Positions 3,420 to 62,008 of a stretch of 64,000 nt of DNA are shown here, in pieces. How positions within the stretch are numbered: the stretch's first letter is position 1; the number at the start of each line of letters is the position of its first letter. Source of the DNA: Wickerhamiella versatilis (lineage: Eukaryota); NCBI GenBank assembly GCA_030867685.1, contig JAQOWU010000007.1:2232001-2296000 (forward strand), given 5' to 3'. A program made the position numbers and the translations under genes. A model generated the notes under the pieces. That model did no database searches and was not told the DNA's origin. It saw nothing but the letters and a program-made list of their open reading frames with translations.

Positions 3420-4892
3420 ATGATACCTTGGGGAGTGCTTGCAAGTATATTCTCGGTAGCCTTTTGGCTAGATTTCCTAAGAGAACGAGATTCTGAACGA
3501 GAAGGTAATACGGAGAGTTTGTTTCTCAGTCATGTGTTCCACAGAAGTACTGACCCATCGCTTTATCTTGGTCAGTTCTCGTTGAACACCGTTCATACGT
3601 TGACCCAATCTTATGCCCCATTGAAGTATACAACCAAAAACCTGCCTAGGCAATCAAGTGAATTGGGTGCATGGAAGCTCAGTGAACACCTAGTTCCTGA
3701 TGTTACGGACAAGGATACTGTTATAACGCTTGCCCTACTAGCAGCGAATGCGTATGTCCCTACTCCGCATGAAGGCGATTGGACAAATGTTAGCAAGAGT
3801 GGATGGAACCATAATGGTAATGGCTTCGGCTGGGACTCTGATGGCGTGAGGGGATATGTGTTTTCTTCTAAAGATAAGAAGCAGGTTGTAATTTCTCTGA
3901 AAGGTACCAGTACTGCTATAATGGATGACGGTGGACCTACGGCTCCCAACGACCAAATCAATGATAATCTATTCTTTAGTTGCTGTTGTGCTCGGGTCTC
4001 TCGCTTGTGGACCACGGTTTGTGATTGCTACCTAGGTTCGAATCAAAAATGTGATGAACAATGCCTCGAGCGCGAACTATGGCGTGAGGATAGATATTAT
4101 TCTGCTATTCTTGATATATACAGGAACACCACTGCTCTATTTCCTCATGCAAATATTTGGTTGACAGGCCACTCTTTGGGAGGCGCTTTGTCCAGCTTGT
4201 TAGGCAGGACGTTCGGGCTTCCTGCCGTAACGTTTGAGGCGCCTGGAGAGGAATTGGCAGTGAAAAGACTTCATCTCCCTGTAGCCCCTGGGCTGGCACC
4301 TTGGGAGGATCACATTTGGCATTTTGGCCACAATGCAGACCCCCTATTTTTGGGAACTTGTAATGGGGCAGGGTCGACCTGTGCTATGCGAAACTATGCG
4401 ATGGAGACTAAATGTCATTCAGGTATGGTGTGCGTTTACGACGCCAAAGGCGATATGGGCTGGCGTGAAAGCATCGTGAATCACCGCATCCATGTAGTGA
4501 TTGATGACTTGATGACCCAGTATGAAAAGCCTGCTGTTTGCGAATTTCCTGAGCCTTGTGAAGATTGTTCTGACTGGGAGTTCATAGACCCTATAGCAGT
4601 ACCCACTGAAACGGACACGTTGACTATCACTGCCACGCGTACTAAAACCAAACATAAGTCAACGGAGACCATCACTGAGACCTCCACCGAGACTGCAACC
4701 AGCTCGTGTGTTAAAAGAGCCTGGTGGGGCGCGTGCCAAACATGGACAACCCTTCCACCAGCATCCACAAGCAGCACAACCTCAACCACTGTCGCATCAT
4801 CGTGTGCTCGCAGGAATCTTTGGCAGCAGTGTGAAGAATGGGTTACTTTCACCAGCACCCTCAAAGGTTTACCCCTTGTTACACCTACTTAA
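3420..4892 (+). CDS. ATG15: Autophagy lipase Atg15
   Basis: N-terminal hydrophobic anchor, NDNLFFSCCCARVS, lipase motif LTGHSLGG, Cys-rich region and Thr-rich tail. Confidence 0.93.
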   Translation: MIPWGVLASIFSVAFWLDFLRERDSEREGNTESLFLSHVFHRSTDPSLYLGQFSLNTVHTLTQSYAPLKYTTKNLPRQSSELGAWKLSEHLVPDVTDKDTVITLALLAANAYVPTPHEGDWTNVSKSGWNHNGNGFGWDSDGVRGYVFSSKDKKQVVISLKGTSTAIMDDGGPTAPNDQINDNLFFSCCCARVSRLWTTVCDCYLGSNQKCDEQCLERELWREDRYYSAILDIYRNTTALFPHANIWLTGHSLGGALSSLLGRTFGLPAVTFEAPGEELAVKRLHLPVAPGLAPWEDHIWHFGHNADPLFLGTCNGAGSTCAMRNYAMETKCHSGMVCVYDAKGDMGWRESIVNHRIHVVIDDLMTQYEKPAVCEFPEPCEDCSDWEFIDPIAVPTETDTLTITATRTKTKHKSTETITETSTETATSSCVKRAWWGACQTWTTLPPASTSSTTSTTVASSCARRNLWQQCEEWVTFTSTLKGLPLVTPT

Positions 4893-5241: not shown

Positions 5242-6102
5242 ATGGCAGATGGGGTACTTGTTATTGATAGCAATGTGGTTCTAACGAGCCTGGTATTAGT
5301 GAAGGATCTAGCTATGAACGCAAACGAAAATAACTGTGAGGTTATAATCCCACAAGCCGTTATAAGTGAGCTTGATGGAATGAAATCTAGTAGCCCTAGT
5401 GCGCGCGCATTTGCTCGGTGGCTGCAAACTGAATTAGAAGTTGAAGCTCCTGGAATTAGGCTACAGCGCTTGAATGAAATAACTGGTACTGGCGCACATG
5501 GTGATGATGGAATCTTGGATTGTTGCCTATATTTCAAAAAGATATCGAAGGTCGTCGTACTTGTGAGTGATGATCGCTTGCTTGCATCACGGGCTATGGC
5601 AGAAAACATACTGACTGCATCATTATTTAGTGGACTGACTGCTGCTCTTATTTATCGGGAAATGTCTCTGAGACTAAACCCTCAGTCACCAGCAGAGATG
5701 GACGTGTGGTCTGAAGATATAGATATGTATGATGATCCTCTGCAAGCGCAGACAGCAAGAACAGAACTTCCTGGGGCTGAGGAGCTAAAAATACCTAATG
5801 TTGTCTCTTTGAATGGGGATGAATCACCTAAAAACAACTTGTTTGAAACTGCTGTCCAGCTTTGTGACAGGCGGATTCGACAGGTTTACGACCCCTCAGA
5901 GCTAGATTATTTGGAGTATCAGCTGCCGAAGAAGCCAAGGGACCTACGACGACTCGTAAAAAAATTTGGCTTGGCATGCTTATCTGAATACTTGCCGCGA
6001 CAGTTGCAGAAAGAAATTGACCAATGGCCTTCTAATCTAAAGGATGAGAATGATATACTGAGTGCGATAATTATCCATCTCGGAGGGGAGGTACCTCAAT
6101 GA
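5242..6102 (+). CDS. PIN-domain RNA endonuclease, Swt1-like
   Basis: VIDSN, ELDGMK, DDGILDCCLYF and VLVSDD..L match the Swt1-type PIN acidic motifs. Confidence 0.7.
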   Translation: MADGVLVIDSNVVLTSLVLVKDLAMNANENNCEVIIPQAVISELDGMKSSSPSARAFARWLQTELEVEAPGIRLQRLNEITGTGAHGDDGILDCCLYFKKISKVVVLVSDDRLLASRAMAENILTASLFSGLTAALIYREMSLRLNPQSPAEMDVWSEDIDMYDDPLQAQTARTELPGAEELKIPNVVSLNGDESPKNNLFETAVQLCDRRIRQVYDPSELDYLEYQLPKKPRDLRRLVKKFGLACLSEYLPRQLQKEIDQWPSNLKDENDILSAIIIHLGGEVPQ

Positions 6103-39202: not shown

Positions 39203-40396
39203 TCATTTTGTGGGTGAATTACATGTCCCAGATGTGAACGATGACTCTGCGCTATGATGAGGTAAGGTTATTTCTTCAAGTTCCATCTCACTTGGTTCCG
39301 TCTCAAGCAATCGCTTTTTACTGCGTTCGACTAGATCTTGCACATAACCTGTTATCCGCATCTCGTAGTCACGCATAAGCCATTGTCTCGCTAACTCCAA
39401 TAGCGAGCAAACGCTGTAAACCATTATAAGGGAAAATATGCAGTAAAGCGGAAGAGATGGCTTATTCTGATATTCATGTGACCTTATTATTTCATGCCAT
39501 AGTTTCTCTCTCCAAATGTCATTATCGTGGATAAAGTACACACCCAAGGTACAATTAGCCAGCACGTTAATCAAATTGGACTGCACATTTATTCGCGAAA
39601 ACAAAAGGAACACCAATACAGCCAAGATAAGGGCACATGGGCTATTCATATCAGAGGCGACGGCAGTGGCTCCTCCCCGATCTCGCGCCCACTGAATCTC
39701 GGGGTGTACTGCGAAGTATAAAATGCTACTAATACTGATAGTTGCAACAGCCACAAGAGCGAAAAGTATCGTTGACGTTTTAATACGGGCCAGCCGACTA
39801 TTAAAGCGCCTGATTGAAGCCCCAAGCAATGTCATATAGATGAACCAAAAAACATGACTGAAAGCGTATTCATTCCACGACAACACAGACATGACAAGAA
39901 ATTGCGTGGTCAAAATGGTTAAGAGATCGAATTCTGACGTTTGTACCGATACAATGGCAGTGCCACTCGATATTAACATAGCTGCGATGTAGCTCGATAC
40001 AAACCAGTACGAATACGTCGCGATGGGGAAGAGTCCTCGAAAGAAACTCCATTCAGATAGATCACGGTTACTGTAATAAGCCAAAAAGAACAGGGTATAC
40101 GACCACACAATGGCCTGGATCCAAGTGCGCATCAACGATCCAAGCTTTACGCCTTTACCGTTCAAAAAGTATCCTGAAAGAAGTAGGAATATATTCACAC
40201 TAACCTTCCCCCCAAGAAACAGCACATTAAAGAAATTCTTGTTAAATATATGCGTCGGTATTTCATTCTCGTCCTCTTCAAAGTTGTGAATTGAGTGCAC
40301 TTGCAAATGATGGGCTACAATTAGAAACATTGCCACAATCCTCAGCAGCTCGAAGTTCGACTGCCGTCCCGAGGCACCCTTCTGTTTCTCCGCCAT
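39203..40396 (-). CDS. Membrane-bound acyltransferase-3 (OafA-like TM domain), bacterial-like
   Basis: RQSNFELLRIVAMFLIVAHH, V.IF.L.SGYF, YWFV..Y, TLGVYFIH; about 10 TMs. Confidence 0.85.
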   Translation of the reverse strand: MAEKQKGASGRQSNFELLRIVAMFLIVAHHLQVHSIHNFEEDENEIPTHIFNKNFFNVLFLGGKVSVNIFLLLSGYFLNGKGVKLGSLMRTWIQAIVWSYTLFFLAYYSNRDLSEWSFFRGLFPIATYSYWFVSSYIAAMLISSGTAIVSVQTSEFDLLTILTTQFLVMSVLSWNEYAFSHVFWFIYMTLLGASIRRFNSRLARIKTSTILFALVAVATISISSILYFAVHPEIQWARDRGGATAVASDMNSPCALILAVLVFLLFSRINVQSNLINVLANCTLGVYFIHDNDIWREKLWHEIIRSHEYQNKPSLPLYCIFSLIMVYSVCSLLELARQWLMRDYEMRITGYVQDLVERSKKRLLETEPSEMELEEITLPHHSAESSFTSGTCNSPTK

Positions 40397-40969: not shown

Positions 40970-41557
40970 ATGAGACTCGCGGTCTTTTGTGGGTCTTCTC
41001 CGGGAAATAATGCCGATTATCGGGAGAAAGCGTATAAATTTGGGCAATTTATCGCCAGTAGAGGAATAGATATGGTCTACGGTGGCGGAAATTTAGGTTT
41101 AATGGGGGCTTGTGCTGATGGCTGTCTTGCCGGTGGAGGCAAAGTCATTGGCATCATGCCGCAGGATTTATTTGACAAGGAGGTCGGGCACAAGGGCGTT
41201 ACTGAGCTTATCGTTGTTCCAAGTATGCATGTTCGCAAGGAACGGATGGCGGATCTTGCCGATGGTTTCGTAGCTTTACCTGGGGGACCTGGAACACTGG
41301 AGGAGATATTTGAGCAATGGACTTGGGCACAATTAGGTATCCACAGAAAGCCCTGTTCATTTCTAAATGTTCGTGGCTACTTTAACCCTGTCCTAAACAT
41401 GGCTGACTCAATGGTAGAAGCTGGTTTCATGAAAGCAGATCATCGCGACATGTTGATATTTACGGAAGACATGGCTGATTTGGTTGATAGATTGAAAAAT
41501 TATAAGCCGGTTTTGGACAAATGGGGTCGTAAAGGGGATAATAATATCAAACCGTGA
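40970..41557 (+). CDS. LOG-family (TIGR00730-type) nucleotide/cytokinin riboside 5'-monophosphate phosphoribohydrolase, bacterial-like
   Basis: VFCGSS.G, VYGGG..GLMG, MHVRK, PGGPGTLEE, TWAQLGIH.KP; 195 aa. Confidence 0.93.
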   Translation: MRLAVFCGSSPGNNADYREKAYKFGQFIASRGIDMVYGGGNLGLMGACADGCLAGGGKVIGIMPQDLFDKEVGHKGVTELIVVPSMHVRKERMADLADGFVALPGGPGTLEEIFEQWTWAQLGIHRKPCSFLNVRGYFNPVLNMADSMVEAGFMKADHRDMLIFTEDMADLVDRLKNYKPVLDKWGRKGDNNIKP

Positions 41558-50183: not shown

Positions 50184-51962
50184 ATGATTTTATTTCTATT
50201 GGCTCAACTTTTGGATGTTGCTGCCATTCATCTCGACCCGAATAATACAGAAAGTATCCTGAACGGGGCAAACCTTGTCATCGAAGGTCTTCTTCCATAT
50301 TCACCATATTATCTCAATAAAAGTGGAGCTATTCCCGGTATAATGCAAGAACCGTATTATTGGTATGAATCCGGAGTAGCTTGGGGTGCGCTTCTCGATT
50401 GGTCTATAGCGAGTGGTAACACTAGCCTCGATAATTTTCTTCGCCATTCGATTGAGTACCAGTCCGGTAAGTATTGGAACTTTCTCACCGTAAATCAAAG
50501 TATGGTCGAGGCGAATGATGACCAGGTCGTTTGGGGGATGATCACCATGGACGCTGCAGAGAAGAACTTTTCTGCACCCAATTCAGAAGGTGACGATGCC
50601 TATCCCGATAACTGGCTTTATCCTGCACAAGCGATATTCAATTCTATTGTTCCGAGATGGGATACATCCCTATGCGGTGGTGGTCTGCGATGGCAAATAT
50701 ATGAATGGAATAATGGATATGATTATAAGAGCATGGTTGCCAACGGAGGGTTCTTCCAACTAGCGGCAAGATTAGCCCGTTTCACAAACAATGAAACTTA
50801 TGTTGACTGGGCCGAACGAATATATTCTTGGGCTAACGAAACCAATCTTATTAGTGCAGTCAGTCCCGATGAGGATTGGCCATACAAGATGGTTAGAGTC
50901 AGAGATGGCGTGAATGGCAAAAACAACTGTTCAGACATCGCACCTTATGAATGGACTTACGATCAGGGATTCATGATGAGTGGGTGTGCATACCTCTACA
51001 ATCACACCGGTAATCAAATCTGGCGTGACCGTCTAAGTGGTTTGTGGAGCCGCGCACAAGTGTTTTTCAGCAATGACACTCTATATGAGGCCTCTTGTAA
51101 CCCATTAAACGGCAAAGTCACATGTAACAACGATCAGAGGTGCTTTAAAGGTATATTCCTCCGTAGTCTTGGTCTTGTGATGCGCCTTGTACCTGAAACA
51201 AGGGAATGGGATGGAATGTGGAAAAAAGTTGTAACTTCTGCTGAAAAGGCCGCACAGAGCTGTTCCGGTGGTATCGACAATCATACATGTGGACTGAACT
51301 GGTTGAAGGATGGCTGGGATGGCTGGTATGGTTTAGGCGAGCAAATTAATGCGCTTGATGCTTTTAATACACTGTTAATTGATCAATATCCAGCGCCTTT
51401 CACAGCCAGCGATTTACCCCATATCTATGCAAATGACATCTCCGGACTTATCGCAGGCAATTGGTCCCTTGCCAACGACTCATCGATAGCGAATATGACC
51501 ATTTCCAACAGCTCGCTGGCGAACCTCACTGAAACCTACAATCTGACAGCATCTAACTACACAATCTCAACATCCCTTGACTTTAATACCACGAAAATCA
51601 CATTTGCCAACATATCCTTCGTTAATATCTCTTATACGAACATTTCTTTCGCGAATAACAGCTGCAATGGGACTGAATCTTCTGACTGTGTTGAGCCTAT
51701 TTATGGATTCGGCACAGCCGGATCAAATAGCACGGACATTGGAAAGTGTCTAAATTTATCTCATGTCGAGAATTGTTTGAACGAGACGTCGAACATGACA
51801 CTTTGTTTCAACGTCTCAAATCTCGAAGGTTGTCTCGGGGTAAAGGACGTCCGAACCTACGTTAACCTAACAAAACTTGAAGATTATCTGACCTCAGCAG
51901 CTAGTACCTACGACGACGAAAGCTCAGATGATGAAAAGTATGCAACAATCTCGATTGATTAG
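50184..51962 (+). CDS. GH76 mannan endo-1,6-alpha-mannosidase/transglycosidase (Dfg5/Dcw1-like) with an atypical C-terminus
   Basis: Signal peptide, PYYW..SG, catalytic NDDQ, CGGGLRWQI, NDQRCFKG, CSGG....CGL.W, GLGEQ. Confidence 0.9.
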   Translation: MILFLLAQLLDVAAIHLDPNNTESILNGANLVIEGLLPYSPYYLNKSGAIPGIMQEPYYWYESGVAWGALLDWSIASGNTSLDNFLRHSIEYQSGKYWNFLTVNQSMVEANDDQVVWGMITMDAAEKNFSAPNSEGDDAYPDNWLYPAQAIFNSIVPRWDTSLCGGGLRWQIYEWNNGYDYKSMVANGGFFQLAARLARFTNNETYVDWAERIYSWANETNLISAVSPDEDWPYKMVRVRDGVNGKNNCSDIAPYEWTYDQGFMMSGCAYLYNHTGNQIWRDRLSGLWSRAQVFFSNDTLYEASCNPLNGKVTCNNDQRCFKGIFLRSLGLVMRLVPETREWDGMWKKVVTSAEKAAQSCSGGIDNHTCGLNWLKDGWDGWYGLGEQINALDAFNTLLIDQYPAPFTASDLPHIYANDISGLIAGNWSLANDSSIANMTISNSSLANLTETYNLTASNYTISTSLDFNTTKITFANISFVNISYTNISFANNSCNGTESSDCVEPIYGFGTAGSNSTDIGKCLNLSHVENCLNETSNMTLCFNVSNLEGCLGVKDVRTYVNLTKLEDYLTSAASTYDDESSDDEKYATISID

Positions 51963-52215
51963 ATTACTTTGGCAAACTTTCCCCGTCAGTTCCCCTCATA
52001 CCGGAAGAATATCTCTAAAAATGACTGAGATCAAAGTCAAACTAGAATTTGAATACCCAATAGCATACGAACATCTTCAAACTTTAGATCATTGTAAATT
52101 CATTCTATTAAGAAAATGTCCAAATTTCCTTTAAGTTGTGTCCATCGTGATTAATCAAATCACGTGAATCGAAGTGCCCAGACTAGATCACGGTTTATAT
52201 CTTTGAGAGAGTGTA

Positions 52216-53220
52216 ATGGCAGAAAACAATACCTCGCAGAATGTAGAGAGTACTTCTTGCTGCAGTGCAGGCTCCTTCAACAAAATGGGCCCTGAAGCTG
52301 TTTCCCAGCAAGTCCATGCTGGTGCAGGTCGGGAAATTCATAGCATACAACAGGCATTGGTTCCAAGGCAGACTTTTCTAATGGGAGATGTCCATGGGGA
52401 CGGATACAGGGGAGATGGTGAAACACCAATACATCCTGTATCTTTAGATGCATTTATGATCGACTCCACAAGCGTTACCAACGCTGACTTTCAGAAGTTT
52501 GTTGATTCAACAGGATACGTGACAGAAGCAGAAGCTTTTGGTTTCTCTGCAGTGTTTCACCTTCTACTCGCTGCAGATGATAAGGATGTGATGGGTCAGC
52601 CTCCCTTGACTCCCTGGTGGCTAGGAGTGAAGGGAGCCAACTGGAAGCATCCACATGGCGGCAACTCGACAATAAAGGGTCTTGAAAGCCATCCTGTTGT
52701 TCACATTAGCTGGAATGATGCTATGGCCTATTGCAAATGGGCTGGCCGTTCGCTACCCACGGAGGCACAGTGGGAAGCAGCGTCTCGTGGTGGTAAAGAA
52801 GCACAGAGATATTCTTGGGGCAATCGATTAGATTTAACAGATGATGGGCATTGGAGGCTCAACATTTGGCAGGGTGAGTTTCCCACACATAACACTCTTG
52901 AAGATGGCTATCTTGCGACAGCACCAGTGCGTACTTTTACTCCTAATGAGTATGGTTTGTGGCAAACTTTGGGAAATGTATGGGAGTGGTGTCACGATTT
53001 TTTCTCCCCACGAACTTATTCACTTGATGCCGCTAAAGGCATAGTCCACGACCCACATGGACCTTCGAACGGAACAGCGAGAATTTTACGAGGAGGTTCA
53101 TTTCTCTGCCATGAATCCTATTGCAATCGAGCCCGTAATGCAGCCCGCTGGTCCAATACCCCTGATTCCTCGATGAGCAACGCTGGATTTCGTACAGTAT
53201 CAAATACAGTCTCTTTGTGA
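52216..53220 (+). CDS. Formylglycine-generating enzyme (FGE/SUMF1), bacterial-like, no signal peptide
   Basis: F.MG, VTNADF..FV..TGY.TEAE, PWW..V.GA.W.HP, HPVVHISWNDA.AYC.WAG..LPTEAQWE, GNVWEW, RGGSFLCHESYCNR.R (both catalytic Cys), GFR. Confidence 0.93.
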   Translation: MAENNTSQNVESTSCCSAGSFNKMGPEAVSQQVHAGAGREIHSIQQALVPRQTFLMGDVHGDGYRGDGETPIHPVSLDAFMIDSTSVTNADFQKFVDSTGYVTEAEAFGFSAVFHLLLAADDKDVMGQPPLTPWWLGVKGANWKHPHGGNSTIKGLESHPVVHISWNDAMAYCKWAGRSLPTEAQWEAASRGGKEAQRYSWGNRLDLTDDGHWRLNIWQGEFPTHNTLEDGYLATAPVRTFTPNEYGLWQTLGNVWEWCHDFFSPRTYSLDAAKGIVHDPHGPSNGTARILRGGSFLCHESYCNRARNAARWSNTPDSSMSNAGFRTVSNTVSL

Positions 53221-53536
53221 TATAAAACTTGCTCTCCTACAAAAACTACCTAGTCGTATGGCTTAGCATAATTTTTTTTATACTTCGTTAAAATGACGTT
53301 TCCGCTCTATTTTACAATTCTTGCAAATCGACGTACTTAAAGAGGCAACGGTGTTAGTTTGGACGAATGTACTATTCAGTTTTTTTACTATAGTTTGTAT
53401 TCAGACGATTAGAAAGACCAGATATGGAATCTTGCATCAAGGCACTACTGGCAACTATGTTAAGGTTGCATATCATGTGACATTAGATCAGCGATTCGAT
53501 TATCTTTGCATTCTTACCTTTGTCTTGTTGGCACAA

Positions 53537-55114
53537 ATGTCTAAGGAAATAGGAAAAGAAGATGTTGAACTAACAACAGCGGAAATTGCGGATGTTGATC
53601 CTGAAACTGGTGTTAAACGAGGGCTTAGAACACGACATGTTTCTATGATCGCTTTGGCTGGTATCATAGGAAGTGGCCTCATAGTGGGCAGCGGAAATGC
53701 TCTAGAATTGGGTGGGCCTGCATCGACACTTATCTGTGTAGTAGTAGTGGGCTTTATTGTGCTCTCTGTCATGCAAAGTATCGGAGAAACTGTTACACTA
53801 TATCCAGGTGGGGGTGGTTTCTTAACCATCGCGAGCCGCTTTGTCAATCGTCCCCTCTGCGCGGTGATCTGCTTCAATTACTTTGTAGCTTGGATCATGG
53901 TCTTAGCAAATGAGTATAATGTCTTGACCCAAGTGCTGCACTCTTGGGATTCGTCAGGTGGGGAAGGTACTGGCACTGAAAAGGTTCCAATATATGGATA
54001 TTTCTTACTATTTTTCGCATTTTTTCAATCTTTCCAGATGTTAGGAGTGAAAAGCTTTGGTGAGGCAGAGTTTTGGCTTGCTCTTGTAAAGATCCTAGCA
54101 CTAATCGCCTTCTATATTTTTGCTTTGATCTATGTCTGTGGTGGAATCAAAAATAGGCCAGCTTTCGGATTCCATTACTTCAACGATCCTGGCGCTTTTC
54201 ACCAAGGATTTCGCGGACTTGCACAGTGTTTCGTTTTTTTCTCAACGTTCTACGTAGGTACAGAGGCAGTCGCTCTCACAGCCACTGAGGCAAGAAACCC
54301 AGGTACAGCCATTCCTAAGACAATTTCGCAAGTAATGGTACGAATTTTGTTGATTTACGTTCTGTGCATTTTATTTATGGGAATGACCTGTCCCTACGAC
54401 GACCCCCAATTGTCGAGCGGAGCAACGAAAGCTCTGCTGAGTCCAATGACCATTGCAATCCAGAATGCCGGGCTAGAACAGGGCTATCATATTATAAACG
54501 TGCTTCTTTTGGTTGTGCTGTTATCAGCTATCAACTCCAGTATATACTTTGGATCACGAAGCATCTTTTATTTGGCCGACAATGGCCTGTTGCCTCCCAA
54601 ACGATTTTGGACTTACACTTTACCTAATGGAGTACCTCTCGTCTCAGTTACATTTGCACACCTCTTCGGTTTTCTCTCGTTAATGAATATGAGCGAGGGT
54701 GCCGCTCAGGCATATACTTACATCACCAATCTTAGTGGTATATCAATATTCATTGTATGGGCTGGAATTTCGTTCTCACACCTCCGTTTCCGCCGCGGAT
54801 GGCGATTACAAGGTTATGGTACAGGCGATCTCCCGTACAAATCCTTTTTTTATCCAATTACCCCACTTTTTGGGCTCGTTTTGAGCATCTTTCTGGCGTT
54901 TGTTCAGGGTTGGACAACCTTCAGTCCTTTTTCAGCCGGTAACTTCGTAGACTCCTACATTCTGCTGCCAGTTTCTGGCGTCATTTATATCGTGTACGGT
55001 CTTGTTTTACGTGAATTTAAGTGGAAGAAACCAGAGGATATGGACTTCACATCGGGGAAGCGGGCAGACCTAGATATAACGAAGAAGAAGTTGAAATTGT
55101 GGGAATTAATTTGA
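53537..55114 (+). CDS. Yeast amino acid permease (YAT/APC family)
   Basis: KRGLRTRHVSMIALAGIIGSGL, FGEAEFW, GTEAV...A.EA.NP, S..NSSIY..SR; first ATG at 53537. Confidence 0.92.
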   Translation: MSKEIGKEDVELTTAEIADVDPETGVKRGLRTRHVSMIALAGIIGSGLIVGSGNALELGGPASTLICVVVVGFIVLSVMQSIGETVTLYPGGGGFLTIASRFVNRPLCAVICFNYFVAWIMVLANEYNVLTQVLHSWDSSGGEGTGTEKVPIYGYFLLFFAFFQSFQMLGVKSFGEAEFWLALVKILALIAFYIFALIYVCGGIKNRPAFGFHYFNDPGAFHQGFRGLAQCFVFFSTFYVGTEAVALTATEARNPGTAIPKTISQVMVRILLIYVLCILFMGMTCPYDDPQLSSGATKALLSPMTIAIQNAGLEQGYHIINVLLLVVLLSAINSSIYFGSRSIFYLADNGLLPPKRFWTYTLPNGVPLVSVTFAHLFGFLSLMNMSEGAAQAYTYITNLSGISIFIVWAGISFSHLRFRRGWRLQGYGTGDLPYKSFFYPITPLFGLVLSIFLAFVQGWTTFSPFSAGNFVDSYILLPVSGVIYIVYGLVLREFKWKKPEDMDFTSGKRADLDITKKKLKLWELI

Positions 55115-55633: not shown

Positions 55634-56227
55634 ATGTTCCTGGCTTCTATCACATTTGCACTGCTGTTGCTTCAAGGCGTTTGTTTCGCTAAAACCACTT
55701 CGACAGCCGAACCCCAAAAGAGTTCGGATGTAACAAATGACGATTCAACGGTCTGCGCTGTAGCAGTTCTGCAAGGTCCTTCAAATGTTAAGGGCACCGT
55801 TACCTTCTTGCAACCATCACAAACGGACACTGTGGCAGTGCACTATAACATATCAGGGAATGATCCCAATGCTCTGAGGGGATTTCATGTTCATGAGTTG
55901 GGAGACCTCCAGGATGGATGCTCTTCGGCTGGAAGTCACTACAACCCGCTTAATCGTCAACATGGGGGTCCGAATTCCGAAAACCGACATATGGGAGATC
56001 TTGGAAATGTCAAAACAGATGAGGACGGCAATGCAATTGGCATCATAAATGATAGCCAGTTAACTCTCTTTGGAGTGCATTCCATTGTGGGTCGATCAAT
56101 AGTGATACATTCTGGTGAAGACGACCTGGGGCAGTTCGATGGTGAGTCGAAAATCACAGGAAACTCAGGCAGCCGTAATGCTTGCGGAACAATAAGCATA
56201 GCAAATAATTCAAGCTTAAATTGGTGA
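55634..56227 (+). CDS. Secreted Cu,Zn superoxide dismutase
   Basis: Signal peptide, GFHVH, SAGSHYNP, HGGP, RHMGDLGNV, IVIHSGEDDLG, GNSGSR.ACG. Confidence 0.92.
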   Translation: MFLASITFALLLLQGVCFAKTTSTAEPQKSSDVTNDDSTVCAVAVLQGPSNVKGTVTFLQPSQTDTVAVHYNISGNDPNALRGFHVHELGDLQDGCSSAGSHYNPLNRQHGGPNSENRHMGDLGNVKTDEDGNAIGIINDSQLTLFGVHSIVGRSIVIHSGEDDLGQFDGESKITGNSGSRNACGTISIANNSSLNW

Positions 56228-57133: not shown

Positions 57134-58504
57134 TTAGAACAGTGCAAGAATAGCAACGGCGCCAATGACAAGACCACTGATGGGGCTCACCGCGCTTCCG
57201 GCGTTTGCAACAGCAGGCTGGGAGCTTGGCACGAACTCAGCAGCAGAGGTTGCTGCAGGGACAGTTCCGTTAGATGGAGAGCTCTTAGATGGCAACTTAG
57301 CAGCAGAGGACTCCGGAGCGCTGGCAGCAGGAGCGCTGGCAGCAGGAGCACTAGCAGCAGGAGCGCTGGCCTCAGTGGTGCATGGGGCAGTCACAGTAAC
57401 GGTGACAGTCTCAGGCGTGCACACAGCAGAAGACGAAGGGAGGGCACTCTCCGCAGCAGAGGTTGGCGGGAGAGCAGACTCCGCAGCCGAGGTAGCAGGG
57501 GGAGCCGCCTCAGGGGCCGAGGTAGCAGGGGTAGGAGCCGACTCGGGGGCCGAAGTAGCGGCAGGAGCCGACTCAGGGGCCGAGGTAGCAGGGGTAGGAG
57601 CAGACTCAGGAGCAGACTCAGGGGCCGAAGTAGCAGGAGGAGCGGACTCAGGGGCCGAAGTGGCGGGGGTAGGAGCCGACTCGGGGGCCGAGGTAGCAGG
57701 AGGAGCAGACTCAGGAGCCGACTCAGGGGCCGAGGTGGCAGGAACGCCCTCACTCTCACTGGGGGAAGCCGAAGGCTTGGTAGACATAGTCTTTGTGAGA
57801 GTCAAAGTGGTTGCAGATGAAATGGTGTAGGTCTTGGACTCATGAGTGAAAGTGGTAGGACTTGGGCAGTATGTAGTGAAGTGAGTAACATCAGCTGTGA
57901 CAGTGCTCTCGGCAGGAGCGCTTGAGTTTGCAGACCTGGGGGGAACTGCGCTCTCAGCAGCGGAAGTTGGAGGAATCTCAGAAGATTCGGTGGCTGCTGG
58001 TGCAGACTCAGGTGCGGAGGTTGGGGTGCCAGAGCTTGCCTCAGTCTTGGTGCAGTCACAGTCCTCGATAGTCATAGTCGTAGCCTCGGTAACAGTGTAG
58101 GTGGAGGAACCGTGAGTGAACACAGTAGGAGAAGAGCAGTAGGTAGTAATGTAATTAGTGACCTCTGCAGTCTTGGTGACATCAGGACCAGATGATGGGA
58201 CACCAGATCCAGTGGCAGTAGAGGCAGATGATGGGACGGCAGACTCGGCGGCCGAGGTGGCAGGAAGACTGGAGTCAGTCTTGGTACAGTCACAGTCCTC
58301 AATAGTCAATGTGGTTGCCTCAGTCACGGTGTAAGTGGATGAGCCATGAGTGAATGTAGTTGGTGATGGACAGTATGTCGTGAAGTGGGTAACATCAGCA
58401 GTAGCAGTGGCAACAGCTGGAACGGTAGTGTTCCAGTATAGGCTGTTACCAGCTACAGCCTGCAAAGCAGCGACAAGAACCACAGGAGCGACGTTGCTAA
58501 TCAT
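57134..58504 (-). CDS. GPI-anchored Ser/Thr-rich cell wall mannoprotein (Sed1/Ccw12-type repeats)
   Basis: Signal peptide, three TTYC(P/S)SPT.FTH..TYT...ATT.T domains, ATSAPES repeats, C-terminal ANAG plus hydrophobic GPI signal. Confidence 0.9.
   Translation of the reverse strand: MISNVAPVVLVAALQAVAGNSLYWNTTVPAVATATADVTHFTTYCPSPTTFTHGSSTYTVTEATTLTIEDCDCTKTDSSLPATSAAESAVPSSASTATGSGVPSSGPDVTKTAEVTNYITTYCSSPTVFTHGSSTYTVTEATTMTIEDCDCTKTEASSGTPTSAPESAPAATESSEIPPTSAAESAVPPRSANSSAPAESTVTADVTHFTTYCPSPTTFTHESKTYTISSATTLTLTKTMSTKPSASPSESEGVPATSAPESAPESAPPATSAPESAPTPATSAPESAPPATSAPESAPESAPTPATSAPESAPAATSAPESAPTPATSAPEAAPPATSAAESALPPTSAAESALPSSSAVCTPETVTVTVTAPCTTEASAPAASAPAASAPAASAPESSAAKLPSKSSPSNGTVPAATSAAEFVPSSQPAVANAGSAVSPISGLVIGAVAILALF
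57460..57745 (-). repeat. Intragenic minisatellite encoding (P/A)ATSA(P/A)E(S/A)A repeats
   Basis: Recurrent ~30-45 bp units built on GACTC(A/G)GGGGCCGA(A/G)GT(A/G)GC on the + strand. Confidence 0.85.
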
Positions 58505-59524
58505 AAAGAATGAACTAAAGAACGTTGTGAATCAAAAGGGAAAGGGGACCCCCTGAAATATATATATTTTTTCGAGGCGTAGGGGAATTCCCATCACATC
58601 GCATAAGCAGTATGTGGTAGTGCTGCTCGATATAGGGGTATGCAGACCCCTTACCCGTTGAGCATTCTTCGAAGTAGCGGGTTATAGAATTGCGATGGAA
58701 CGATAATTAGTAGCCCAAATAGACATTAATTTGATTCCATTCTCTTATTCTCGCGATTTAGGTGGGTTCAGACCGTTGTAACGAAGTTGTTGGTATTTAG
58801 CGAGATCCAACGCGTCTAGGTATGTATTAGTAATGACGCGGGGGAGGGGCACACAGGGGTGACATATGACCATCAAAACAATAAATTGGCCTTTTTTCTA
58901 CAATTTATTTCTAGAATGATCTGAAATTGTTAGAATCCCCATAAGAATAGACTGAGGCTTTAAGGAATTACTCGAAAACATGACATTCTTGACGCGCTGG
59001 TATTATACCCTAGCCCCCGAAGACTCCTGGTTGTTAACCACGGGTGGGTTGAAACCAAGAAGTAAACAAAAAAAAAGAGGGTTAATTATAAAGGTTCAGT
59101 AATAGATTGCGAGTTAATTTGTCTTCAACCTACATAGTTATAACGATTTTTTAAATTTTTTTCCCTTGTTCTGATTGACCCCAGTACGTTTAGCGGTATG
59201 TATTACTGGAAGGTTATTTAGCTAGTATGGCTGAGCCCCGGCCTAGGGTAACGAGTTTTTCTAGGTGTTCAGCTTTTTGCAGTTCAATTGATACAATATA
59301 TTCAATAATATGTTTATAGTATGTCGAAATAGAAAAGTCCAAATTATAACGAAGATACGAAAAAAATCTCTGCAAGTAAGACACTATATCAGGTACAATG
59401 TTCTTGTCTTTAAAAAAAAATTATACTTAGAGGGTTAGAAATACTTCAATCAATTAACGAAAAGGCTTCCAAATCAACCGGAATGCCTATTTCTTAGATG
59501 CTATTTGCTCGTCATGCGACTATG

Positions 59525-59534
59525 CTATTTATAG
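59525..59534. promoter_or_regulatory. Rlm1/MEF2-type site upstream of the GPI wall protein gene
   Basis: CTATTTATAG consensus match about 1 kb upstream of 58504; it could instead be part of the NHA 3' UTR. Confidence 0.3.
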
Positions 59535-59626
59535 CAAAAAAGAATTATGAACTATATATAGCATTGCCACTCTAGTAATTGAGATTGATTGAGACATTAG
59601 GAATTAAATATATAGACATTTATTTT

Positions 59627-60970
59627 CTAGGATTTGGCTTTTGACTTATTATTGACCCTTTCGAGAATACGCACGACTCGCACCGATAATCCATGGACTA
59701 TTACAGAACTAAGCACAATAAAACATGTAACTGGCCAAATGCGTGCTAATACATTCATTCCTTTTATCCCACTTGTCGGAATTGTGTCCTCAGGAACATT
59801 CCCATTTCCCTCAAGTCGACTAGAAGCCAAGAGAGACATGTAAATTGCCGCCACCCCGATTGGTCCGAAGTGTCCACATATCAACGCGTCCTTCCAACTA
59901 TGGACTGCTGGAATGACAGGTTTAAGGATTAAAAGAGCTGGAATTCGCCTTCCAACTAAGATTAAGATCGAAATCACTATCAATCGCCATACGGGCATTC
60001 CTAATGCCGTATCATTGAAGCTTTCCCAAGGAATAATAGCACCAAAATAAATGAAATATGATGTGTTTATGACGAAGTCGATAAAACCGGTGACATCAAG
60101 ATCTGCAGTAATATTATGTGCCCATTTGTCCCAAGAAAATGCCGCACCAGCAAAGAAAGAAACCAAAAAATCGTCCACCCCTAACACGGATCCTACTCCC
60201 GCGCACCAAAGTCCCATTATTATATTGAATGCCAGCATATGCTCACCTTTTATTTGATACCACCTTCCGCTGAATTTGAAGATCTCGCGAAAAACAAATC
60301 CTATTACGGCACCTAGGATACAGCCAAATAAAACCTCATAGAGTACTGTTAGTACTATAAAGTCCTTTGCTACCTCATTGGCATGATGCTCATGGAGCAA
60401 TATATGTACAGGTAACATCATGAATGGTAATGCCATTCCATCATTAGAGGCCGATTCTGCAGAGAGCAGAGACGTGATTCTTTGAGGAAGCGATTTTGCG
60501 AAGTCTGAATTGGCAACTACCGCGCTCGCCAACACAGGATCGGTTGCTGTGACACAGCCTGCAATTACAAGCGCCTCAACCCAGCGAAGGGGTGGCAGGA
60601 GCTTCCATATAAAAATAGAATTCAGCATATAGCCTATAACCATGATAGGACCAAGTACCATGACTAGACTAAGCCAATTCTTCATGATATACTTCGGCGG
60701 TAACTCCACGCTGGAACCGAATATCTGAATATTCATAACAATTCTCGACAGTTCGAGTGTAATATAGTAAGTGTTACCCCACTTGTTTGGACTGAGCCAA
60801 TCTAAGCAATGTGGGCCTACAATCAGTCCGTATATTACTGCAATGATTACTTCTGAAAGATCAAAACGTTGCTTAAACGCGAGAGCGACCGAGCCTACGA
60901 TAATCAGGCCAAAGCTCAGACAAGCTAAACCTACATGTGGATATGTACCAGAGATTTCTTCAAAGGCCAT
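59627..60970 (-). CDS. Plasma-membrane Na+(K+)/H+ antiporter, Nha1/Sod2 family, lacking the long hydrophilic tail
   Basis: GPHCL, VELP.KY, TATDPVLA, SAES..NDG, GVDDFL, RRIP, HFGPIGV, S..VHG.S. Confidence 0.92.
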   Translation of the reverse strand: MAFEEISGTYPHVGLACLSFGLIIVGSVALAFKQRFDLSEVIIAVIYGLIVGPHCLDWLSPNKWGNTYYITLELSRIVMNIQIFGSSVELPPKYIMKNWLSLVMVLGPIMVIGYMLNSIFIWKLLPPLRWVEALVIAGCVTATDPVLASAVVANSDFAKSLPQRITSLLSAESASNDGMALPFMMLPVHILLHEHHANEVAKDFIVLTVLYEVLFGCILGAVIGFVFREIFKFSGRWYQIKGEHMLAFNIIMGLWCAGVGSVLGVDDFLVSFFAGAAFSWDKWAHNITADLDVTGFIDFVINTSYFIYFGAIIPWESFNDTALGMPVWRLIVISILILVGRRIPALLILKPVIPAVHSWKDALICGHFGPIGVAAIYMSLLASSRLEGNGNVPEDTIPTSGIKGMNVLARIWPVTCFIVLSSVIVHGLSVRVVRILERVNNKSKAKS

Positions 60971-61270: not shown

Positions 61271-62008
61271 ATGCGGATTCACGTTATCAATCCTAATACT
61301 AGTAATAGTATGACAGAAAAAATAGCCGTGGCAGCAAAGAATGCTAGTCGCACAGCGGAAGTTGTGGCCGTGACAAACAGCGAGGGGCCAGCCTCACTCG
61401 AAAGCCATTTTGATGAAGCCTTGGCTGTGCCGGGCCTTCTTAGAACAATTAGGGAAATCAGGGATGGTGAGACTGATGGCATATTGCTTGCTTGTTTCGG
61501 AGATCCCGGTGTCCATGCTGCACGAGAGCTTTCGTCGGTACCCGTCTTTGGAATTGCAGAGGCAGCGATGAGAACAGCAGCTGCCCTCAGCAGTAAGTTT
61601 TCAATTGTCACTACACTTGCCCGTACGATTCCGATAGCCGAAAATATTCTTCAACAAATCGGATTGGAGCGTTGTTGTGCTAGAATTCGCGCTTGCGAAA
61701 TTCCTGTTTCCGATCTAGAAGACAAGGGTGGTGATCCAAAGGCTTTTAACACACTTCTTGAGGAATGCAAACGTGCTGTTGATGAGGATGGTGTCGATGC
61801 TTTGGTTCTTGGATGCGCCGGCATGGCAGACCTGACGGCCAACATCAGCACCGAATTAGGAATTCCAGTTATCGACGGTGTAGCCGCTGGTGTCCAATTA
61901 TTGGAAAGCTTGGCCAATCTAGGACTGAGGCCAGCCAAGATTGGTGATAGAGCTATGCCACCGGCAAAAAATATCATTGGACCCAATGCCGACTTAGGGC
62001 GCGCTTAA
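61271..62008 (+). CDS. Hydantoin/allantoin racemase (Asp/Glu/hydantoin racemase family), HpxA-like, bacterial-like
   Basis: INPNTS..MT, H.DEA, ACFGDPG and LGCAGM (two catalytic Cys), PV.GIAEAAM, FSIVTTL.RT, PVIDGV. Confidence 0.92.
   Translation: MRIHVINPNTSNSMTEKIAVAAKNASRTAEVVAVTNSEGPASLESHFDEALAVPGLLRTIREIRDGETDGILLACFGDPGVHAARELSSVPVFGIAEAAMRTAAALSSKFSIVTTLARTIPIAENILQQIGLERCCARIRACEIPVSDLEDKGGDPKAFNTLLEECKRAVDEDGVDALVLGCAGMADLTANISTELGIPVIDGVAAGVQLLESLANLGLRPAKIGDRAMPPAKNIIGPNADLGRA

Follow-up and report, generated by a model that had tools for sequence, protein, structure and literature searches.

Formylglycine-generating enzymes (FGEs) act on type I sulfatases, which carry a (C/S)-x-(P/A)-x-R motif near the N-terminus (PMC6189696). 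The best match to the locus described here is found among bacterial FGEs, of which the T. curvata enzyme requires C269, C274, S266, and S290 (Knop et al., PMC5324649). In fungi, arylsulfatases have been reviewed as apparently lacking formylglycine (PMC5857272), and, according to another account, no SUMF sequences had been reported from yeasts with such sulfatases (PMC4659905). A choline sulfatase of the Halomonadaceae was described in C. versatilis and W. domercqiae, and FGE is absent from the genes common to at least two species in the available portions of that report (Goncalves 2018, PMC5897096). In W. versatilis, gene 03986 is the same FGE gene and is tabulated as "HGT Bacteria," SUMF1/FGE K13444, and "New function" (Brito et al. 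2026, PMC13376923, Supplementary Data 6). The betC gene and three arylsulfatases are also classed there as HGT Bacteria. The terms sulf, sulph, formylglycine, choline, and Actinobacteria do not occur in the main text of that paper, and its accessible portions and supplement hold no donor, client link, promoter analysis, or test. The supplements of Pontes 2024 gave 0 matches. No paper discussing a yeast FGE was found in the searchable literature, outside which lie most subscription papers and the Shen 2018 supplement. The foreign origin and annotation of the gene are already tabulated; not found in print was the combined picture of a modifier and candidate clients that come from different bacterial lineages and share a host sulfur motif.

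The window is the whole stretch of W. versatilis DNA that was analysed, 64,000 nucleotides in length. Native genes flank the FGE gene on both sides on a contig of 2.64 Mb, and the same order is found in an independent published assembly. The native GH76 flank shows that the gene sits in yeast chromosomal DNA. The amino acid permease reported directly downstream in the preliminary description is present (Table 1), and TCATGTGA lies 64 bp upstream of it at 53473-53480. In S. cerevisiae, AGP3 responds to sulfur limitation.

Table 1. Features of the FGE locus and of the type I sulfatases encoded elsewhere in the genome
Feature	Position in window	Strand	Description	Basis or nearest relatives
GH76 gene	50184..51962	+	Native, upstream flank of FGE	Pfam, published table
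ATCACGTGA, Cbf1-type E-box	52159..52167	.	48 bases before FGE ATG	
FGE ORF (P0001)	52216..53220	+	334 aa, one frame, no stops, intronless	
N-terminal Cys-Cys	52258..52263	+	Residues 15-16, in probably disordered arm	
Cu(I)-binding motif LCHESYC	53107..53124	+	C298-x4-C303	Alignment to 6S07/6MUJ
Ala306 + Trp312	53131..53151	+	Lineage-specific pair beside active site	Alignment
Amino acid permease	53537..55114	+	Native, AGP3 family, directly downstream of FGE	Published table
S1 (P0121)			CSATR	Nearest Pseudomonadota (identity comparison)
S2 (P0122), choline sulfatase BetC			CGPAR	Halomonadaceae-like
S3 (P0123)			CMPAR	Named nearest matches Actinomycetota, about 57-62% (identity)

The gene order of the window from ATG1 to a SED1-like gene corresponds to W. 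versatilis genes 03969-03990 (Brito et al. 2026, PMC13376923). Collinearity with the published numbering stops after the SED1-like gene 03990 (window 58504-59627), and the window then runs towards the block around 05306-05320, which suggests a rearrangement or an assembly difference. Several other genes of the window have a bacterial look or family. A LOG-family gene (40970-41557) with CACGTG at -50 is listed as HGT Bacteria in the published table, an acyltransferase-3 (WecH-like) gene (39203-40396) is listed there as Native and belongs to a family typical of bacteria, and an Asp/Glu/hydantoin racemase-family gene of bacterial look lies at 61271-62008. Two genes downstream of the FGE, at 55634-56227, there is a second Cu/Zn SOD that seems to have a signal peptide; it is probably unrelated.

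The gene had been read as a full FGE with a CxxxxC copper motif, and this was confirmed by Pfam, by structure matches, and by C298/C303. The PF03781 FGE-sulfatase domain matches residues 50-328 with 246 bits (cut-off 23.3). The fold extends across the whole protein without an extra domain, and the protein is the sole FGE-domain match genome-wide. The closest solved structures are those of the S. coelicolor FGE (6MUJ/2Q17, E 1e-113), followed by T. curvata FGE (E 1e-94) and human SUMF1 (E about 1e-88). An AlphaFold2 model from a 44-row alignment has a pLDDT of 88 and a pTM of 0.87, and it superimposes on 6MUJ with an rmsd of 1.3 Å (Foldseek E 1e-44). The protein falls under the equivalog cut-offs for SenA (123 vs 420 bits), EgtB (110 vs 360), GldK (52 vs 500), and PvdO (116 vs 350). 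Its sequence and fold place it in the bacterial FGE family (EC 1.8.3.7).

In a comparison of sequence only, C298 and C303 align with C269 and C274 of T. curvata FGE. The catalytic S266 and the substrate-groove S290 of that enzyme are both kept, as S295 and S319, and 102 of the 104 strongly conserved columns of the tree alignment are retained. A near-invariant Tyr located three residues past the second cysteine is replaced by Ala306; it is Tyr in 62 of the 63 other tree rows, and the 80 GTDB FGE loci have 79 Tyr, 1 Phe, and 0 Ala at this position. Residue 312 is Trp, where most other FGEs have Ser/Thr. The A/W pair is confined to the yeast protein, three of its alleles, and protein P0002. A forced compensation between Ala306 and Trp312 is not supported by the alignment: bulky residues (His, Phe, and Leu) at 312 co-occur with Tyr at 306. 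No role for the Tyr306 equivalent was found in the available passages of the FGE literature, including PMC5324649.

The loss of a near-invariant residue speaks against a maturation shared by the sulfatases of this genome. It also fits the idea that the chemistry was lost or changed by Tyr306Ala and Trp312 and that the protein was kept for copper binding or another substrate, as in Cys-less FGE-fold proteins; repurposed FGE folds are known in fungi, as in OCTIN (PMC5915273). However, the repurposed forms lose the catalytic cysteines, whereas the yeast protein keeps C298, C303, S295, and S319, and P0002 carries the same pair at 69% identity, which indicates a long-tolerated change. A change of chemistry is considered very improbable, and a retained formylglycine-forming activity is preferred.

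The N-terminal Cys-Cys pair of the preliminary description is present, and the model gives pLDDT <50 for residues 1-24. As a special feature of the yeast FGE it was rejected: CC occurs within the first 45 residues in 87 of the 119 nearest relatives and is a trait of the donor family. The absence of a signal peptide also held. It was judged by crude Kyte-Doolittle hydropathy, not SignalP; the maximum is 0.29, which means no hydrophobic N-terminal stretch, compared with 1.75-2.88 in five signal-peptide-type eukaryotic FGEs.

Among the best 120 of 6276 matches to the yeast FGE, all 32 rows that name an organism are Actinomycetota, with about 59-67% identity. The nearest sequence among the matches listed is P0002, with 69% identity; its DNA context was sought in a metagenome scan, where the best match was 61%. 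With its best named matches at 67% or less, its position nested in bacteria, and a host that is a W/S yeast, the gene agrees with the pattern used for W/S-clade xenologs (<70% donor identity, nested in bacteria). For the FGE tree, 37 of 80 GTDB loci were chosen and two (L027 and L036) were dropped, as the motif pattern was unmatched. The resulting 65 rows (35 GTDB loci, 28 proteins, the yeast FGE, and P0002) were analysed by IQ-TREE under LG+G4, with a bootstrap that was not fully settled. The yeast FGE and P0002 are joined at 100/100. They nest in a clade of 36 rows (100/93) and in one of 40 rows (100/100); apart from one Halomonas, the named members of these clades are all Actinomycetota. 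When the two are constrained to group with nine sequences of eukaryotic origin or signal-peptide type, the log-likelihood falls by 133 units, and the AU test rejects this topology (p=1.5e-4). Four of the nine are named (a fish, two insects, and an alga), and the test is against animal and algal FGEs, as the tree is without a fungal FGE; among the representatives looked up for the tree (20 of 150 listed), 0 had a fungal name.

The proposed horizontal acquisition from actinobacteria is supported by these results, as the yeast FGE nests in Actinomycetota and the SUMF1 grouping is rejected; a grouping with vertically inherited sequences did not appear in the animal and algal comparison. By the tree, the donor is placed in Actinomycetota. 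The tree does not support a narrower placement in Microbacteriaceae, local support around the donor fork being 87/65. Judged by its position outside the eukaryotic clade and its missing signal peptide, the protein is not an SUMF1 ortholog.

The gene has a host-like composition. Its GC3 is 0.39, within the range of eleven native neighbours (0.39-0.54), and six actinobacterial FGEs have 0.79-0.98. Its codon use tracks that of native genes (r=0.62) and runs against that of donor-type genes (r=-0.51). Allele P0124 differs from the protein at 7 of the first 47 residues and at 3 of the remaining 287, which form the core (p=6e-5), a distribution in line with selection. Raw RNA reads cover the ORF in 3 of 3 runs from 2 studies, of which two runs are polyA, at a depth of about 18-69. 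The depth dips ahead of the permease and there are no splice joints; the libraries appear unstranded. In run X12, 8 reads have loose ends at 52162, which places a transcript start inside the E-box. The loose letters before 52162 are presumably a template-switch adapter, which they resemble. In the published table, the FGE is expressed at 50-62 TPM in YNB and 31-34 TPM in YPD and is not differentially expressed (Brito et al. 2026, PMC13376923). Two rival origins, contamination by bacterial DNA and vertical inheritance of a eukaryotic SUMF1, could draw on the missing fungal FGE in the tree and on the representatives without a fungal name. Unless the gene belongs to a broad fungal FGE clade, both are refuted by the native flanks and the repeated gene order, the GC3, the polyA-library reads, and the AU test, and their probability is negligible.

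No sulfatase had been noticed in the window, and all 5 PF00884 matches of the genome fall outside it, so that sulfatases are, as was expected, encoded elsewhere. A genome search for CxPxR, as had been recommended, found three full type I sulfatases, all of the cysteine type, of which two have CxPxR and one has CxAxR (Table 1). The remaining two PF00884 matches are presumably GPI ethanolamine-phosphate transferases, which they resemble. A signal-peptide-like start, beyond the usual first strand, is absent in S1, S2, and S3. No SPASM-domain/anSME match was found in the yeast genome.

The three sulfatases differ in their nearest relatives. The best identity of S1 is 58% among 301 Pseudomonadota genomes and 48% among 301 actinomycete genomes, and its plasmid matches are led by Sphingomonadales. 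S2 scores 778.6 bits on TIGR03417 (cut-off 433.45), matches structure 6FNY with E 3e-203, and groups with an 84% relative and then with Carnimonas at 100/100. Of 401 actinomycete genomes, 9 contain an S3-like gene. An FGE accompanies it in 8 of the 9, in 3 cases no more than 7 kb away, against an FGE baseline of 45/301 (43/299 without two genomes flagged as unpublished). Because an FGE is present in 8 of the 9 genomes, S3 and the FGE may have arrived together. In the set of 80 FGE loci, the only ones with a close S3-like neighbour (37-57%) belong to Bacillota. As judged from these relationships, the clients come from different bacterial groups and are therefore a mosaic, not a single transferred system. 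A single operon as the source of the FGE and the sulfatases was rejected, as the nearest relatives lie in different phyla. The earlier idea of an acquired sulfatase-maturation system is retained in that all parts are bacterial; it is given up as one system, since the donors differ in phylum. Linkage of FGE and betC, which are 36 kb apart here, was also rejected as clustering, as the published blocks 03969-03990 and 05306-05320 are separate; this linkage may be strain- or assembly-specific.

Some further observations concern the sulfatase genes. An amino-acid-transporter-like gene (L102, C7:298379-299839) is divergent from S1 and shares TCACGTGA at -82; its product is a candidate importer of the S1 substrate. 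An Ohr/OsmC-like gene lies beside betC (L002:3387-3884) and has a possible mitochondrial leader, as read by eye. In other records of the same clusters, P0134 (263 aa) is a diverged partial S1 paralog, and P0444/P0135 are split BetC products, a hint that strains differ in the gain and decay of sulfatase copies.

A narrower reading holds that the FGE is active for its cognate S3 only, both from one actinobacterial cluster, while BetC and S1 remain unmodified or use another route, so that there is no shared system. The co-occurrence of S3-like genes with FGE, adjacent in 3 genomes, agrees with it. W. domercqiae keeps betC and expresses it at 55-250 TPM without an FGE row in its published table (PMC13376923), which is also evidence against shared maturation. 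S. meliloti BetC turns over repeatedly even when unmodified, at 0.27 per second (PMC6189696). S1-type donors are mostly without a matching FGE: of 10 Pseudomonadota genomes that carry an S1-like gene, just 1 has an FGE match at E<=1e-50, a count that argues against S1 as a client. However, BetC carries the canonical CxPxR and would share its compartment with the FGE, modification is expected to give 5- to 2500-fold higher activity, and FGE is reported to modify non-cognate clients (PMC6189696). In addition, S3 is weakly expressed at 2-13 TPM, compared with 31-62 TPM for the FGE (published table, PMC13376923). On balance, restriction to S3 is unlikely, and maturation of more than one client is favoured.

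The E-box reported about 50 bp upstream of the FGE was recovered as ATCACGTGA (Table 1). Its core TCACGTG lies at -56 for the FGE, -18 and -405 for S1, -102 for S2, and -73 for S3. All four genes thus have the motif within 150 bp of the ATG, compared with 5 of 73 other ORFs, one of which shares the S1 promoter; for the sulfatases, 3/3 vs 5/73 gives p=8e-4. Because TCACGTG is not enriched genome-wide (1059 vs 990 in the reversed control), the FGE E-box alone is weak evidence. Among sulfur genes, whose MET/Cys names we assume from Pfam family plus resemblance, MET3, MET16, and a MET17-like gene (L087, L106, L110) also carry TCACGTG, with its CACGTG core at -77 or -78 relative to the start codon, and MET14 and six other Cys/Met PLP genes are without TCACGTG. 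The distance in the former three is unusually fixed and short. TCACGTG is present in 4 of 9 TauD genes and absent in 5 of 9. The TauD dioxygenase family (L088-L097) is itself expanded, with 10 matches, duplicated blocks on C1 and C8, and one stop-broken copy. A bHLH gene (L119), which we take to be Cbf1-like by resemblance, is present, and its own promoter has two TCACGTG sites.

All four genes have gained the TCACGTG motif of host sulfur genes, and it is therefore probable that the FGE and the three sulfatases, besides being expressed at a basal level, belong to the host sulfur regulon. A simple regulon reading is opposed by the transcript start inside the motif, by the S1 site only 18 bp from the ATG, and by the lack of a Met31/32-type site, none of which was found upstream of the FGE, S1, S2, or S3 with the patterns used. 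The FGE and the arylsulfatases show no differential expression between YNB and YPD, neither of which is a sulfur-starvation medium, and betC and, weakly, MET3 are higher in YPD than in YNB, which the FGE does not follow (PMC13376923). Induction of the FGE by sulfur starvation is possible, as its promoter motif suggests.

It can also be hypothesized that maturation is real and serves another purpose: BetC would supply choline for betaine or nitrogen, S3 would desulfate sugars for carbon, and the E-box would be a general promoter element. FGE expression is constitutive in the two published media, the shorter CACGTG occurs often in promoters here, before 6 of the 37 ORFs of the window, the nearest BetC relatives are Halomonadaceae, and one actinomycete S3-like gene adjoins an ABC-transporter cluster, whose sugar type was read by eye from the translation. 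Against this, the fuller TCACGTG is found at 4/4 genes vs 5/73, the E-box distance is nearly that of MET3, MET16, and MET17, and betC moves with MET3 in the W. versatilis and W. domercqiae tables (PMC13376923). This explanation is judged somewhat less likely still than restriction to S3, and a role in sulfur supply remains the preferred reading.

Together with these data, we propose that an actinobacterial FGE gene entered the W. versatilis lineage long ago and was then domesticated. The enzyme would act in the cytosol, as its bacterial relatives do, and would hold Cu(I) at C298/C303 as a bis-thiolate site. It would use O2 to convert the active-site Cys of newly synthesised sulfatases into formylglycine. 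The putative clients are S3, possibly acquired with the FGE, BetC, and, less surely, S1, and formylglycine would raise their activity. The matured sulfatases could then hydrolyse imported sulfate esters, and the sulfate would pass to the native MET3 pathway. To this main reading, in which the FGE matures cytosolic sulfatases at a Cu(I) site and these deliver sulfate to the native MET pathway, we assign a probability of about 0.68. A more ambitious version is offered tentatively, with the odds against it: a complete cytosolic formylglycine system may have been built from at least three bacterial lineages, with an FGE remodelled next to the active site (Tyr to Ala, Ser to Trp) that would mature foreign clients of Halomonadaceae and other Pseudomonadota origin, a CxAxR enzyme included, and its parts may have come independently under the Cbf1 sulfur motif.

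If true, a formylglycine-forming enzyme would be demonstrated in a fungus for the first time, and a working cytosolic yeast FGE would be an exception among fungi. It would mean that genes transferred horizontally from unrelated donors can come to form a modifier-client dependency, and that such a dependency can be tied to a host regulon. The sister species with BetC alone would be a natural knock-out, and the need for modification is directly testable between W. versatilis, where an FGE is listed, and W. domercqiae, where betC is listed and an FGE is not. In the latter, rows 03784/03785 are adjacent, barely expressed "arylsulfatase" entries classed as HGT Bacteria (PMC13376923, Supplementary Data 7); they may represent a single broken gene, in decay since the FGE was lost. 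For aldehyde-tag and sulfatase production in yeast, in which addition of human SUMF1 gave up to 1.8-fold (PMC4932491), a cytosolic FGE adapted to that host is also a candidate tool. The reach of the finding is limited by a well-known enzyme family, by a host that is the best-known yeast recipient of bacterial genes, and by the existing tabulation of the gene.

Compared with known systems, the yeast protein is closest to the FGEs of S. coelicolor and T. curvata (6MUJ, 2Q17, 6S07). Like them, it is a single-domain protein of the cytosolic type with a CxxxxC copper site and S266/S290 equivalents, and it shows 50-58% identity in structural alignment with an rmsd of 1.3-2.2 Å. Unlike them, it is encoded on a yeast chromosome with host codons and an E-box promoter, and it has Ala306 and Trp312. 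Nor does a sulfatase gene adjoin it; of 80 bacterial FGE loci, by contrast, 49 contain a sulfatase-like match at a distance of up to about 4 kb. Human SUMF1 has the same fold and catalytic cysteines at 47-48% identity; however, it acts in the ER, and the yeast protein lacks a signal peptide and falls outside the SUMF1 clade. In the W/S clade, thiamine salvage and a siderophore operon were reportedly rebuilt from several bacterial donors, and these pathways are likewise bacterial genes integrated in yeast metabolism. OCTIN is an FGE domain in fungi that also came from bacteria but lacks the catalytic cysteines (PMC5915273), and Egt1/EgtB-type proteins, unlike the yeast FGE, have the FGE domain fused to DinB. 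S. cerevisiae BDS1 is a sulfur-regulated bacterial sulfatase in yeast, likewise acquired from bacteria (PMC5857272). Bds1 is of the metallo-beta-lactamase type and does not need formylglycine, whereas the W. versatilis unit would consist of a post-translational modifier together with its clients.
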